Virus record (IMG/VR): IMGVR_UViG_3300032069_000005
Location: 1-64,000 of that record
Length of the DNA: 64,000 nt
Direction: 5' to 3' (one strand)
Source: a virus
A model generated the notes under the pieces. The model was not told the origin of the DNA. It saw only the letters and a list, made by a program, of their open reading frames with translations, and did no database searches. Below are positions 26,743-31,194 of this stretch, piece by piece (positions within the stretch are counted from its first letter, which is position 1; each line of letters begins with the position of its first letter). The translations under genes and the position numbers were made by a program.

Positions 26743-28983
26743 ATGCTTAATCTTCCAATCCAAAATATATCCTCAATTGGTCGTGAAATAATTCTCTTTA
26801 ATCGACAACAAAGCGGAGAGCTTACAATAATGAGAGATTTATTGTTCAGTCCCTATTATTATGTTCCTTCTCCTACTGGAATATTTAGAGGATACTTTGG
26901 CGGAAAATATGATAAAGTTACTTGTAAAAATCCCCGGGAAATAAAAGATAAACGAAATGTAAAAACAGATGGGGAAAGTGATGTTCCATATGTTCGTCGT
27001 TATCTACTTGATAAAGTAAATATAATTAAATCTCCTACGAGATGGATTATGTTTGATATTGAGACTCTTAGTAAAATTGTTCCTAATCCATTGGTTGCCC
27101 CAGACCCAATTACTTCAATAACCGCATATGATAATTATGAAAAAAAGTATATTCAATTTTGGTGCGAAAATTATCCATCTGAATATGAACTTATAGATGC
27201 GTTTATCAATTATATTAAGGAAAGGAAGCCAGATTTACTCCTGGCGTATAATATAAATGGATTTGATATGCCTTATTTGGTTACTCGTTTTTCTGACTTC
27301 GGAGAAAAGGTTAGCCCCATAGGACAAATTAAAAAAAGAAATGGATACCCAGAAGGAATCAGTATAGTCGACTATTATGAACTCATTAAAAAAGTATATA
27401 AATATAAGAGGCATACTTTAGATTTTATTTATTCTGATGAATTTAAAGTTCCCCAGAATTTTATAAAATATAGATTTAATGAGATTAGCCCAATCATTAA
27501 AGAAAAGAATCTGGAAGATGTAAAAAAAATGGTCGCCTTAGAAAATAAATTGCATCTCATTGATTATTTTGATGAACAAAGGAGAATTGCAAAAGTTCTT
27601 TGGGAAGATTTATGTCATTTTAGTGTATCTATCGATGGATTGATTTTGCAAACTGCGAAATCTAAAGGCGTAGTCTTACCGAGTAAACCAGACGAAGAAG
27701 AAAAACTTCGTCGAATAGAGGAAGATGAAATCGAAGGCGGATATGTATTTGCCCAACCAGGAAAATATGATGACGCTTCTTTACTAGATATTTCTGGGAC
27801 ATACCCGAATCTAATTACTACATTTAATCTTGACCCTGTAAATAAGAAGAAAATCCCCAATTCGCAGACAGTAACTATCAGAAAAATCCACATAGAACAG
27901 AATCCCAACGCCATTGTGCCAACAGTTGCCAATAGATTAATCGCTTCTCGTAAACAAATCCAAAAAGAACTCGAAGGAAAAACAGGCGAAGAATATGATT
28001 TATTAAAGAAAAAAGATGATGCACATAAATCGCTTAATAATGTGGTCTACGGGATTTTGCTTTTTAAGAATTCTCGTATATATGATAAAGACATCGCCGA
28101 TTGCATTACCTATTTAGCGAGGTTCTTAATTCGATATACCAAATTTGCTTTAAGAAAATTGGGATATTCAGTCATTTCTTCAGACACCGATTCTATTTTT
28201 GTTCATTCCAGAGATTATGAGAAAATAGAAAAATTATGCAATGAAACATTAATTCCTAACTGGCTTAGACACTTTGGCAAAACAGAAGGAACTCTGAGAT
28301 TTAAATATGAAGGATATTTTGAGAATGTTGTTTTTGAAGCACCAAAACATTACAGAGGCAATTTTGTTACTGCTAAGGGCGAACATAAAATGATAAATAA
28401 AGGCATCGAAATTGTTCGCAAAGATTCTTCTAAATTTCAAGAAGAATTTTTAGAGGAATTATATAATAGAATTTTAAAAAATGAAAGTGAGCAAACCATC
28501 TCTAATTGGATATTAGAACAAATAAAAGAATTACCCAATAAACCATTGAAAAATATTGCATTTCCTTTTCAAATAGTCCAAAAAATTTATAATAGTATTC
28601 CTATATCTATTCGAGCACTTCAATATACTGACGAAATAATTCCCAATTTTAGTCAAGATTATCATAATGAATTATATTATATTTATGTTAAACCATTTGG
28701 AACAGCAGAAAGACATTCCAAAAGTATGCGAAAGAATAAAGATACTGGAAAAAAGGAATTAAAAGAATCACATACTATAATAAATAAGAACGTCCTCGCC
28801 TTTGACGAAAATACTGACCACATAAAAGAAGTAGATTATTCAGAAATGATTAGACGCAATATTTTAGATAAGGCGGAAAAGCTCTTTGATGTTTTGGGAT
28901 GGAATAAAGAATTGATTGGGATAAAAAAGAAAATTTCTAAAAAAGATGCAATTGCCGAACTCAAAAAAAGAGGATTATTATAA
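26743..28983 (+). CDS. polB: family B DNA polymerase with 3'-5' exonuclease
   Basis: FDIET, YN..GFD, DISGTYP, K..NNVVYG, SDTDS, KHY, KGIEIVRKD. Confidence 0.92.
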   Translation: MLNLPIQNISSIGREIILFNRQQSGELTIMRDLLFSPYYYVPSPTGIFRGYFGGKYDKVTCKNPREIKDKRNVKTDGESDVPYVRRYLLDKVNIIKSPTRWIMFDIETLSKIVPNPLVAPDPITSITAYDNYEKKYIQFWCENYPSEYELIDAFINYIKERKPDLLLAYNINGFDMPYLVTRFSDFGEKVSPIGQIKKRNGYPEGISIVDYYELIKKVYKYKRHTLDFIYSDEFKVPQNFIKYRFNEISPIIKEKNLEDVKKMVALENKLHLIDYFDEQRRIAKVLWEDLCHFSVSIDGLILQTAKSKGVVLPSKPDEEEKLRRIEEDEIEGGYVFAQPGKYDDASLLDISGTYPNLITTFNLDPVNKKKIPNSQTVTIRKIHIEQNPNAIVPTVANRLIASRKQIQKELEGKTGEEYDLLKKKDDAHKSLNNVVYGILLFKNSRIYDKDIADCITYLARFLIRYTKFALRKLGYSVISSDTDSIFVHSRDYEKIEKLCNETLIPNWLRHFGKTEGTLRFKYEGYFENVVFEAPKHYRGNFVTAKGEHKMINKGIEIVRKDSSKFQEEFLEELYNRILKNESEQTISNWILEQIKELPNKPLKNIAFPFQIVQKIYNSIPISIRALQYTDEIIPNFSQDYHNELYYIYVKPFGTAERHSKSMRKNKDTGKKELKESHTIINKNVLAFDENTDHIKEVDYSEMIRRNILDKAEKLFDVLGWNKELIGIKKKISKKDAIAELKKRGLL

Positions 28984-29126
28984 TATGGATTTATCTAAAT
29001 TATCTAATGAAGAATTAATGAAAATAGCGAAAATATCTCCTAAATTTGCGGGGGAAGTATCGAAAAAGATACTCCTTGCTTCCAGCGAGGAAGGTGGGGT
29101 GCAAGTCCCTAACCCCGCTCCAAATA
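28954..29126 (+). repeat. 173-bp direct repeat, copy 1 (identical to 30007-30179)
   Basis: covers the polB 3' end, SD, Mom N-terminus and tRNA-like element; offset 1053 bp. Confidence 0.95.
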
Positions 29127-29917
29127 AAGAATTAATAATTAAAAAAAAAGAAGAATTGATGCACTCTGATTTTGATTCTTCAAATTTTATGATAGAATTA
29201 ATTGAACCAAAAATGACATATGAGTGGATGATGTATAAACATTATGCACATAAAATACCTCCGGTTATTAAATATTGTTACGGTTTATTTAAAAATAAAC
29301 AACTCGTGGGGGTTTGTGTTTATGGAATATTGGCAAATAAAGAATATAATAATGGAAAATGTTTGTTTAAAAATTATCGAGTTGATGTTTTAGAATTAAA
29401 AAGATTAGTTGTAGATGATGATTTGCCAAAAAATACATTATCTTATTTTGTTTCAAAAACATTAAAAATGCTTCCACAACCAACGTGCGTTGTTAGTTAT
29501 GCAGATAGTAATCAAAATCATCACGGATATATTTATCAGGCTACCAATTGGTTATATACAGGTATGGGAAGAGGGAAATTAGCAATAATAGACAAATCAA
29601 CGGGAGAGGAAATTCACGAGAAAACGATATATGACAGGTATGGGACAAATAATATAGAAATTTTAAAAACTAAATTTGATTTTGATACAAAAATTTTAAA
29701 AGGAAAATATCGTTATTTAAAATTTATTGGAAATCATAAACAAAAAAAAGAAATGTTACACTCATTAAAATGGAAACTTTTTCCATATCCAAAAGGCGAT
29801 AATATCAATTATGATGCTTCTTATAAAATTAAAAATTTAAATATAAATAAAAAAGGAATAATTCAGGAAAAGAGAGAGGAAGATAGACAGACAGAAAAAC
29901 AGGAGGAAGAGAGATGA
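28985..29917 (+). CDS. mom: Mom-like GNAT adenine-modification enzyme, copy 1
   Basis: KHYAH, ELKRL, PKNTLS, VSYADSNQNHHGYIYQATNWLYTG, K.RY, PYPK; GAGGA SD before ATG 28985. Confidence 0.8.
   Translation: MDLSKLSNEELMKIAKISPKFAGEVSKKILLASSEEGGVQVPNPAPNKELIIKKKEELMHSDFDSSNFMIELIEPKMTYEWMMYKHYAHKIPPVIKYCYGLFKNKQLVGVCVYGILANKEYNNGKCLFKNYRVDVLELKRLVVDDDLPKNTLSYFVSKTLKMLPQPTCVVSYADSNQNHHGYIYQATNWLYTGMGRGKLAIIDKSTGEEIHEKTIYDRYGTNNIEILKTKFDFDTKILKGKYRYLKFIGNHKQKKEMLHSLKWKLFPYPKGDNINYDASYKIKNLNINKKGIIQEKREEDRQTEKQEEER
29048..29122 (+). tRNA. non-canonical tRNA-Gly(UCC)-like element embedded in frame in mom copy 1
   Basis: GCGGGGG/ACCCCGC-T-CCA acceptor, GTAT/ATAC D-stem, CCTTG-CTTCCAG-CGAGG anticodon arm, TGGGG-TGCAAGT-CCCTA T arm; 75 nt. 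Confidence 0.8.
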
Positions 29918-29919
29918 TA
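29857..29919 (+). repeat. 63-bp purine-rich direct repeat, copy 1 (one mismatch to 30874-30936)
   Basis: encodes the IIQEKREEDRQTEKQEEER* tail plus SD and ATG of the next gene. Confidence 0.92.
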
Positions 29920-30036
29920 TTGAAATTTCAACAACATAATGGTTGGGTATATGTTTCTGATTTATATAAAGTAGAAACCAGACAAATGTCAAAAAAAGAA
30001 GCACTCGCCGAACTCAAAAAAAGAGGATTATTATAA
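29914..30036 (+). CDS. 40-aa chimeric junction ORF
   Basis: MILKFQQHNG... resembles the start of 30931 (MIVKIIQENG); ends SKKEALAELKKRGLL like the PolB C-terminus SKKDAIAELKKRGLL. Confidence 0.55.
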   Translation: MILKFQQHNGWVYVSDLYKVETRQMSKKEALAELKKRGLL

Positions 30037-30179
30037 TATGGATTTATCTAAATTATCTAATGAAGAATTAATGAAAATAGCGAAAATATCTCCTAAATTT
30101 GCGGGGGAAGTATCGAAAAAGATACTCCTTGCTTCCAGCGAGGAAGGTGGGGTGCAAGTCCCTAACCCCGCTCCAAATA
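30007..30179 (+). repeat. 173-bp direct repeat, copy 2
   Basis: identical to 28954-29126. Confidence 0.95.
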
Positions 30180-30934
30180 TAAATAAAATCATAAAACAAA
30201 AATATGATAAAATACAAGACAATAAATCACAATCGAAAGAGATAAAAAATTTTAATTTAAAAGATTTAAATATGAAAGAATTGGAATTTCAAATAACTAA
30301 AGAATTTATTGTTAAGAATCATTACAGTCATACAATTTCTTCATCTATAAAAGCAAGTATTGGATTTTTTTATAATAATAAATTAGTTACTGCTATTGTT
30401 TATGGTCATCCAATTGGAATTAATGTTGGTTCTTGGTTGCAAGTTCCTGAAGGAAGTTATGCCGAATTAATTAGAGTTTTTAGTGTTGATGAGTTACCAA
30501 AAAATACGGAAAGTTATTGTTTGGCAAAGTCATTTGAATTTTTGAAGAAAAATAAACCAGAATTAAAATATTTAATTAGTTATGCAGACCCCACTCAAGG
30601 GCACGTAGGTTATATTTATCAAGCAACTAATTGGTATTATGTTGGTAAACAGATAGGAATGGATAGAATTTTTAAAATTGATGGCAAACAAGTTCATAGA
30701 AGAACCGCCAATGCTGCTTATGGAACATCTTCAGTTAAAAAATTATCAGAATTATTAGGCAAAAGATTTGAAGTATCAATAACATATCCAAAACACATTT
30801 ATTTAATGTGTTTGGGTTCTCGTAAAGAAAAAAAAGAATGGTATAATAAATTCAAACAATTACCATATCCTAAAATAATTCAAGAAAAGAGAGAGGAAGA
30901 TAGACAGACAGAAAAACAGGAGGAAGAGAGATGA
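30038..30934 (+). CDS. mom: Mom-like GNAT adenine-modification enzyme, copy 2
   Basis: KNHYSH, ELIRV, PKNTES, ISYADPTQGHVGYIYQATNWYYVG, KHIY, PYPK. Confidence 0.8.
   Translation: MDLSKLSNEELMKIAKISPKFAGEVSKKILLASSEEGGVQVPNPAPNINKIIKQKYDKIQDNKSQSKEIKNFNLKDLNMKELEFQITKEFIVKNHYSHTISSSIKASIGFFYNNKLVTAIVYGHPIGINVGSWLQVPEGSYAELIRVFSVDELPKNTESYCLAKSFEFLKKNKPELKYLISYADPTQGHVGYIYQATNWYYVGKQIGMDRIFKIDGKQVHRRTANAAYGTSSVKKLSELLGKRFEVSITYPKHIYLMCLGSRKEKKEWYNKFKQLPYPKIIQEKREEDRQTEKQEEER
30101..30175 (+). tRNA. non-canonical tRNA-Gly(UCC)-like element embedded in frame in mom copy 2
   Basis: identical 75-nt cloverleaf to 29048-29122. Confidence 0.8.
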
Positions 30935-30936
30935 TA
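30874..30936 (+). repeat. 63-bp direct repeat, copy 2
   Basis: matches 29857-29919. Confidence 0.92.
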
Positions 30937-31194
30937 GTAAAAATTATTCAAGAAAATGGAGCATTGTTTTATGATGGATTTGAAAAAATCAGATATGAAT
31001 ATAAAACCAGTGAAGAAATGGAAACCATCGATACAAACGCTATGTGGATAAACAGTAAGTTGCCTCTGAGCGGAATTTTGATTATAGGTCGTAGAAAACC
31101 GATAATTGGAACTGACCCAGAATTTACTATTAGAACAAATGGGGAGACATATCTTCTTAATGATGAAGGTAAGACGATAGAAAGGATTAGATAA
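30931..31194 (+). CDS. conserved small phage protein
   Basis: ends YLLNDEGKTIERI, a common phage motif. Confidence 0.6.
   Translation: MIVKIIQENGALFYDGFEKIRYEYKTSEEMETIDTNAMWINSKLPLSGILIIGRRKPIIGTDPEFTIRTNGETYLLNDEGKTIERIR

Follow-up and report, generated by a model that had tools for sequence, protein, structure and literature searches.

The stretch of DNA analysed here (the window, 64,000 nt; positions 1 to 64,000 of IMG/VR virus record IMGVR_UViG_3300032069_000005) is part of an 86-kb virus record with a GC content of about 28%. Directly 3' of a family-B DNA polymerase (PolB) gene it carries two tandem genes of the Mom family, and inside the reading frame of each lies the same 75-nt segment, referred to here as the element, which takes the form of a tRNAGly(UCC)-like cloverleaf. 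The comparisons described below leave us in little doubt that the element is under selection as a tRNAGly-like RNA and is translated as well; with much less certainty, they point to a role as glycyl donor for the enzyme in whose gene it lies. The features of the locus are the following (ORF, open reading frame; SD, Shine-Dalgarno):

26743..28983, plus strand: family-B DNA polymerase gene (Pfam PF00136 and PF03104; ORF list)
28931..29154, plus strand: 5' repeat module, copy 1, with PolB tail, SD, start, leader and tRNA-like element (repeat D1, alignment)
28970..28974, plus strand: GAGGA SD-like motif, 10 nt 5' of the ATG at 28985 (sequence)
28985..29917, plus strand: Mom-family gene 1, 310 aa, made up of leader, element, linker and Mom domain (PF25680, phrog_1384, PDB 8bv8)
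28985..29047, plus strand: leader of 21 codons, MDLSKLSNEELMKIAKISPKF (kept in relatives; coding-type substitution pattern)
29048..29122, plus strand: tRNAGly(UCC)-like cloverleaf, copy 1, 75 nt or 25 codons (fold, covariation, sequence)
29123..29185, plus strand: linker before Mom domain 1, Lys/Glu-rich and fast-evolving, holding the internal ATG at 29159 (codon-position comparison)
29857..29942, plus strand: 3' repeat module, with shared C-terminal codons, stop and start of the next ORF (repeat D2)
29914..30036, plus strand: chimeric 40-codon ORF at the duplication joint (ORF list, repeats D2 and D1)
29984..30207, plus strand: 5' repeat module, copy 2 (repeat D1)
30038..30934, plus strand: Mom-family gene 2, 298 aa (PF25680, phrog_1384, PDB 8bv8)
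30101..30175, plus strand: tRNAGly(UCC)-like cloverleaf, copy 2, identical to copy 1 (sequence)

In both Mom ORFs the element occupies nucleotides 64-138, 63 nt after the ATG, and reads in frame as the 25 codons AGEVSKKILLASSEEGGVQVPNPAP, with no stop and continuous with the Mom domain. A sequence-only reading of the window had placed a GAGGA motif and an ATG (28985, and 30038 in copy 2) 63 nt ahead of a cloverleaf spanning exactly 25 stop-free codons in frame with the catalytic domain, had noted that the two copies diverge right after CCA, and had listed further in-frame ATGs at 29159 and 30272. The coordinates are borne out by the sequence, the frame by the sequence together with the position of PF25680, and the divergence by the alignment, in which identity is lost a few bases past CCA; both downstream ATGs are there as well. 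GAGGA likewise precedes the ATG at 30038, whereas the internal ATGs (29159 in gene 1, 30272 in gene 2) lack an SD-like motif; they are possible extra starts in the window. A scan for promoters and terminators yielded nothing usable (21 promoter-like sites, against 15.2 +/- 4.0 in shuffles).

Folded as a single sequence, the element adopts the cloverleaf as its minimum-free-energy structure (-33.9 kcal/mol; z = -3.6, a stability equalled by none of 200 shuffles), and its GC content is 52%, as against 20-30% in the flanks. Relatives were collected by DNA-pattern scans, by the covariance models R1 and R2 and by Mom-guided collection of loci, and the element was recovered in L001, L004 (with the same sequence in L008 and L094), L006, L007, L012, L093, L095, L096 and L104, and in a divergent form in L024. 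The covariation alignment, A5, holds 10 distinct element sequences, across which 99.0% of the cells of the specified cloverleaf are paired, whereas shifting the 3' partners by 1-3 columns lowers this to 40-47%. Of the 20 pairs, 15 have changed on both sides, and the covariation score is reached by 0 of 500 shuffles. RNAalifold arrives at these four helices without being given a structure, compensation being seen in 13 of its 23 pairs. The arm lengths are standard for tRNA and have covariation support: six Watson-Crick acceptor pairs plus G7-A66 (pairs 3-5 change by compensation among relatives), a D stem of 4-5 bp, a T stem of 5 bp, a variable region of 4 nt and an anticodon stem of 5 bp, or of 7 bp if 32:38 and 33:37 pair. 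Positions 32:38 do covary as a Watson-Crick pair in RNAalifold (C:G, A:U, U:A), and through this pairing the anticodon loop may be closed to 3-5 nt.

One may also consider that the 75 nt are ordinary coding sequence and that the cloverleaf is a chance fold of a GC-rich stretch encoding a conserved peptide, since a peptide motif is indeed conserved (F-A-x-E-V-S-K ... V-Q-V-x-N-x-A-P). However, the conserved residues are those encoded by the loops, which are invariant among relatives with third codon positions included, while residues encoded by the stems change non-conservatively with pairing kept. In the element, differences among relatives fall about evenly on the three codon positions (76/71/71), in contrast to the leader (69/33/86) and the Mom core (963/670/1267), and its codons are rare for the phage, with a GC content at third positions of 0.52 vs 0.13-0.18 in the rest of the genes and a mean ln RSCU (relative synonymous codon usage) of -0.33 vs +0.28 to +0.55. 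Because the differences are so evenly spread and the codons rare, selection on the 75 nt acts mainly at the level of RNA. The covariation counts contradict the ordinary-coding explanation as well, and one relative, L024, keeps the RNA and loses the reading frame, so that we consider this explanation to be extremely improbable. This comparative evidence shows the cloverleaf to be a real RNA structure under selection, one that either descends from tRNAGly or imitates it.

The copy in L024 (L024:887-956) is a free-standing 69-nt version in an intergenic spacer, 3' of a DNA methyltransferase-like ORF. Its acceptor stem is a perfect 7 bp, its anticodon is UCC, its T loop reads UGCAA, it ends in UCCA, and its D arm is shortened. 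Stop codons come after the RNA; next are AGGAGG and a TTG start, which lead into two tandem Mom genes (983-2371). That the RNA is kept untranslated beside Mom genes argues for an RNA role independent of translation, and this single case suggests that the RNA function has no need for the reading frame.

Everywhere else the frame has been preserved. Of the 12 copies for which DNA was available, 11 have an uninterrupted frame through the element into the enzyme domain that follows, and from -54 to +165 around the element frame 0 contains no stop in any of the 11 in-frame copies, compared with 3-16 stops in the other frames. Every in-frame copy measures exactly 75 nt to CCA, and differences in leader length among relatives are multiples of three. 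In the 200 nt downstream of the element, neither L006 nor L012 contains an in-frame ATG, GTG or TTG, and L001, L093 and L007 have only TTG as an in-frame start. In L007, a complete genome with terminal repeats, a single frame of 1074 codons (L007:4181-7405, minus strand) covers polymerase domains, element and Mom; in L104/L185, also a complete genome, the polymerase frame continues through the element into a DruA-family domain; and P0116, an NCBI-derived protein of 1439 residues, consists of polymerase, intein, element peptide and Mom followed by a polymerase-type C-terminal tail, a layout that looks like insertion of the Mom cassette ahead of the polymerase tail. The element peptide occupies the same place in six further database proteins of the Mom family (P0003-P0008). 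One of them, P0003, known as protein only, has ...SRVRDSNPAP in place of ...VQVxNPAP; since the peptide differs at the position of the T loop, its T loop must differ from UGCAAGU, and back-translation allows, without proving, a canonical TTCGA-type loop.

The proposal of the sequence-only reading that ribosomes translate the tRNA in frame, making it part of the Mom N-terminus, thus stands, given the open frame in 11 of 12 copies, the absence of a downstream start in L006 and L012, the polymerase fusions and the coding-type leader; homologues show no free stops or frameshifts across the element. It is the lack of a downstream start in L006 and L012, together with polymerase-element-enzyme frames in three relatives, that makes read-through appear real, and translation across the element is well supported for the family by these comparisons.

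Which tRNA features has the element kept? Invariant in the A5 sequences and in L104 are G1-C72, C2-G71, U73, C35, C36, A37 and the encoded CCA, a set that matches the bacterial glycine identity set of U73, G1-C72, C2-G71, C35 and C36 (PMC9976931), so that by its identity marks the element is a predicted substrate of glycyl-tRNA synthetase (GlyRS). According to the same source, U73 and G71 of tRNAGly are also read by the GNAT toxin TacT (PMC9976931). Position 34 is U in most copies and A in L104, and the G10-Y25 pair is kept (GU in 7, GC in 3). The copy in L104 (L104:239-314) accordingly has the anticodon triplet ACC instead of UCC, with C35, C36 and A37 kept.

The rest of the molecule is far from canonical. 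The canonical tRNA core has U8, A14, G18, G19 and T54-Psi55-C56, and the element departs from it with A8, C14 and a D loop, CGAAAAAG, that lacks GG; its T loop, UGCAAGU, has UGC instead of TTC and G at position 55, and the T loop of L012 has CGC. General tRNA detectors pass over it: ARAGORN reports no tRNA in the window, nor in any of 78 loci scanned, and the Rfam tRNA model RF00005 finds no match in the window at E <= 10 and, at E <= 1, no match at the element in five phage genomes, yet it finds matches in all 14 control genomes. Since both programs miss the element, we call it a tRNA-like cloverleaf and not a canonical tRNA. A canonical elongator tRNA was considered and ruled out, as core nucleotides are absent and the general detectors miss it. 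The sole canonical tRNA in the five related phage genomes lies at G003:C1:3784-3862 (L186; RF00005, 47.9 bits), and at E <= 1 RF00005 finds none in the other four, the window's own record included. Judging from these nucleotides, the element seems to have kept the features needed by GlyRS and by a transferase that binds the acceptor end, and to have lost those that serve the ribosome and EF-Tu (G18G19, T54-Psi55-C56, U8/A14 and an open 7-nt anticodon loop).

The position of the element, always at the junction between polymerase and downstream enzyme, could also be that of an mRNA processing signal (a "t-element", or tRNA punctuation) at which RNase P and 3' nucleases separate the polymerase and Mom parts, the excised RNA being a by-product; tRNA-like t-elements are said to shape mRNA ends in plant mitochondria (PMC1920247). 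We consider this improbable. A cut Mom message would be left without a start in L006, L012, L007 and L104, the conservation of glycine identity and the association with enzymes that use Gly-tRNA would go unexplained, and the element of L024 has no adjacent polymerase gene.

Both window proteins clearly belong to the Mom family. With PF25680 (cut-off 27.1) gene 1 scores 132.5 bits (2.1e-38, residues 68-270) and gene 2 scores 141.8 bits (3e-41, domain from residue 77); both match phrog_1384, and the sequence of the Mu Mom structure, 8bv8_A, is matched by gene 2 at 1.3e-17, by gene 1 at 5.4e-14 and by the family profile at E = 1.3e-28. The two proteins are 48% identical overall, and their domain types are found singly in relatives, type 1 in L004 and type 2 in L001. 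Seven residues are reported as important in Mu Mom, namely H58, Y59, R111, S124, D149, R151 and Y159 (PMC13219725). Under a mapping that assumes an offset of 9 between chain and Mu numbering, itself inferred from the HY motif, six of the seven (the equivalents of H58, Y59, R111, S124, D149 and Y159) are kept in the window proteins. In the closest Mom relatives that lack the element, about 20 residues precede the HY(S/T)H motif and no N-terminal extension is present, whereas the window enzymes have one of 65-78 residues; the internal ATG at 30272 coincides with the start position of those relatives.

Work of 2023-2026 has shown that Mom takes glycine from charged tRNAGly. In the account of Silva et al. 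2026 (PMC13219725), Mu Mom transfers the glycine from Gly-tRNAGly to N6 of adenine in double-stranded DNA, probably reading the acceptor end. The window proteins are of the same enzyme family, as judged by PF25680, 8bv8 and the six residue equivalents. They differ in that Mu uses host tRNAGly and has no embedded tRNA, while the window enzymes have the N-terminal extension and have no R151 equivalent. The main text of PMC13219725 makes no mention of tRNA-like elements, dedicated or pseudo-tRNAs, fusions, DruA or Dehalococcoides.

Free-standing chromosomal genes that ordinary tRNA finders recognise encode the non-proteogenic (NP) tRNAGly of staphylococci. In the published description, their anticodon is UCC, position 19 is not G, and TGC or TGT replaces TTC in the T loop; EF-Tu binds them weakly, and they feed transferases of the Fem type (PMC7826273). 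So far as that description goes, NP1-NP3 of S. aureus and S. epidermidis share with the window element the UCC anticodon, the UGC (or UGU) T loop, the non-G at 19 and 32:38 pairing, and, by analogy, also normal charging by GlyRS (presumed for the window) and use by a non-ribosomal aminoacyl transferase of GNAT fold. The window element differs in being more degenerate (A8, C14, no G18), in lying inside a coding frame, and in that the putative acceptor is DNA and not a peptidoglycan precursor. By this analogy the element would be a phage counterpart of the non-proteogenic tRNAGly that feeds Fem enzymes.

The explanation we prefer is that the element is excised, charged and used as a private, non-proteinogenic glycyl donor for Mom, to which we give a probability of roughly 55%. 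Ribosomes that start at the upstream SD and ATG read the element as 25 residues of a permissive N-terminal extension. In part of the transcripts, the cloverleaf would instead be cut out, with RNase P acting at the 5' side and an endonuclease and exonuclease trimming at the 3' side to the encoded CCA; host GlyRS would charge it, the glycylated element would be kept away from EF-Tu and the ribosome, and the adjacent Mom enzymes would use it for DNA adenine hypermodification without competing with translation. As cutting destroys that copy of the mRNA, each transcript would yield either enzyme or co-substrate, and a coupling of the two through this choice, as the sequence-only reading had proposed, is plausible. 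What favours a private donor is that Mu Mom uses Gly-tRNAGly, that the element has the marks of glycine and none of those for the ribosome, and that it is linked to Mom and DruA-family genes: every copy found adjoins or lies in a gene of one of these families, one copy per gene.

Several observations weigh against a private donor. At other viral Mom loci covariance model R1 finds no element in 73 of 80 (E <= 10) and R2 none in 78 of 78 (E <= 1), so most Mom enzymes do without it. All host tRNAGly isoacceptors are reported to serve Mu Mom, so that a private tRNA is not needed chemically, and the equivalent of R151, which is essential in Mu Mom, is T in gene 2 and N in gene 1 (PMC13219725 for the Mu enzyme). 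The lack of elbow contacts between G18/G19 and 55/56, together with the G7-A66 mismatch, could make the cloverleaf a poor substrate for RNase P, and excision in the polymerase fusions (L007, L104 and P0116) would leave a polymerase mRNA without a stop, which is a cost. Finally, action in trans needs one copy per genome, yet each enzyme gene has its own, which hints at a role in cis.

The main rival is indeed such a role, in which the element is a tRNA mimic in the mRNA that binds Mom, GlyRS or another factor, or through which RNase P destroys the message, and so throttles a potentially toxic modifier while no functional tRNA is made. According to the sequence-only reading, the mom gene of Mu is toxic and tightly regulated. 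A mimic acting in cis would fit the presence of a separate copy for each enzyme gene instead of one per genome, the identity of the copies within one genome, and the fact that the element always shares a transcript with the enzyme, lying inside the ORF in 11 of 12 copies. On the other hand, a roadblock or a binding site has no need of an invariant U73-CCA, of C35 and C36, or of G1-C72 and C2-G71, and the RNA of L024 lies outside any Mom ORF. The sequence-only reading had offered as its alternative an operator of the kind known from thrS. Operators of that type overlap the ribosome-binding site in the 5' untranslated region and mimic part of a tRNA only; they share with the window element a tRNA-like fold in an mRNA, related to the gene's own tRNA substrate, whereas the window element is a full cloverleaf with CCA deep inside an ORF. 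Its distance from the start codon is 54-72 nt, or in the polymerase fusions more than 800 codons, which puts it too far from any ribosome-binding site to compete with initiation, so that thrS-like action is unlikely. Of that interpretation as a whole, the in-frame read-through therefore survives and the operator alternative is disfavoured. A cis-acting mimic in general we consider a serious possibility, of the order of one that would be right in a minority of such cases.

Returning to the private donor, it is also of interest where the element occurs. A scan of 177 loci for the acceptor stem and GCTCCA, which missed L017 and L019 (A3-C70 mismatch), gave 29 raw matches, of which only the known copies (L009-L012 and L024/L106) fold as cloverleaves. 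A DNA-pattern scan of genome contigs for the element gave 0 matches; a Mom-profile scan of genome contigs gave 18 loci, none from Dehalococcoides, and ARAGORN found 0 tRNAs in them. The one marginal match of R2 there, L198 (15.6 bits, E = 0.069), was treated as chance, having no CCA and lying within a high-GC ORF.

Besides Mom, the element stands in frame in the N-terminal part of DruA-family proteins, L096:1918-2985 (minus strand) and L104:2-1252 (plus strand)/L185, with PF14236 scores of 56.9 and 33.1 bits for the L096 and L104 proteins respectively; in L104 it lies between PolB and the DruA-like domain. The association suggests that phage DruA-like proteins may also use aminoacyl-tRNA. Aligning the Mom alignment with the L096 protein by hhalign matched only the element-encoded peptide, a profile of 34 DruA-family sequences gave a probability of 0.8% against the Mom profile and 0 matches at E <= 10 against PDB sequences, and the preprint 10.1101/2025.09.15.676423 holds nothing on DruA function.

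The window carries a tandem duplication of a Mom cassette, in which the flanks are 90-100% identical and the Mom cores 48%. Repeat D1 spans 224 nt with 93% identity between 28931-29154 and 29984-30207, the module copies being identical from the polymerase tail, whose last ~17 codons belong to the module, to a few bases beyond CCA and divergent after that; repeat D2, the 3' module, has its partner at 30874-30959 (90% identity). The ORF at 29914-30036 has a start resembling that of the gene at 30931-31194 and an end that repeats the PolB tail. Near-identical flanks around divergent cores point to acquisition of the cassette by recombination at conserved ends. The conserved leader and element also mark the boundary for exchange of downstream enzyme domains. 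Within the window the polymerase itself, which lies directly 5' of Mom gene 1, is 746 aa long and without an intein or LAGLIDADG-type insertion; polymerase genes with such insertions occur in relatives, in P0116 (by Pfam) and in L001:2-3001 (a long insert in the ORF).

Could this be the whole explanation, with leader and element serving mainly as DNA homology for exchange or duplication of cassettes, or as an attachment site of the tRNA type? Variants of the element do track the phage and not the Mom type, in that L001 (type 2) and L004 (type 1) have nearly the same element and both window copies have another variant; identity between the window copies ends just past CCA; the same element precedes unrelated domains in L095 (Mom) and L096 (DruA); and the window has a tandem duplication with a chimeric joint ORF. 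However, DNA homology gives no compensatory changes in four helices and no invariant tRNA identity nucleotides, no integrase is adjacent in the window ORF list, and recombination is better seen as a consequence of a conserved block than as its function. We therefore think it quite unlikely, slightly more so than a processing signal.

A broader form of the private-donor proposal would hold that the 75 nt are at once a translated segment and an excised, glycylated, ribosome-excluded tRNA for their own enzyme, that DruA-like proteins (and by extension Druantia type I DruA) are aminoacyl-tRNA-dependent transferases, and that the cassette is a swap point behind DNA polymerase. Taken together this is tentative, and in our view rather unlikely to be right in full.

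The embedding of a tRNA-Gly-like locus in mom has been in print since 2011. McMurdie et al. 2011 (BMC Genomics 12:287, PMC3146451) report a 76-bp locus resembling tRNA-Gly, conserved and with DCC as its apparent anticodon, that falls within the opening 150 bp of a mom homologue in Dehalococcoides ssrA islands and in a deep-sea fosmid. Annotation pipelines label it "pseudo-tRNA"; the paper, which predates the finding that Mom uses Gly-tRNAGly, gives it no function so far as its text at hand goes. Compared by description, that locus and the window element are both strongly conserved tRNA-Gly-like cloverleaves of about 76 nt with an xCC anticodon, placed towards the 5' end of a Mom-family gene that is about 270-310 codons long; the former belongs to integrative islands of a Chloroflexi bacterium, the latter to a phage of about 86 kb, where it follows a DNA polymerase gene and is present in two tandem copies. 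Our search, which left supplements aside, found no paper linking an embedded or dedicated tRNA to the Gly-tRNAGly chemistry of Mom. New here are the covariation statistics, the analysis of identity and anti-ribosomal features, the evidence for read-through, the polymerase fusions, the association with the DruA family and the free-standing copy of L024.

The arrangement would surprise most specialists, and the proposed role is directly testable. For annotation it means that tRNA finders miss a class of tRNA-like genes hidden in ORFs. Lying in frame, the element would offer a clear example of one sequence selected at the same time for its translation and for its RNA structure, and the locus would be useful for studying competition between RNase P and the ribosome on one message. 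The element ahead of DruA-family genes may be a first biochemical lead for that uncharacterised family. A private donor would give a function to the unexplained "pseudo-tRNA" of Dehalococcoides, and a Mom enzyme with its own tRNAGly look-alike would provide a concrete answer to how a phage enzyme can compete with EF-Tu for glycyl-tRNA, namely by having a donor of its own.

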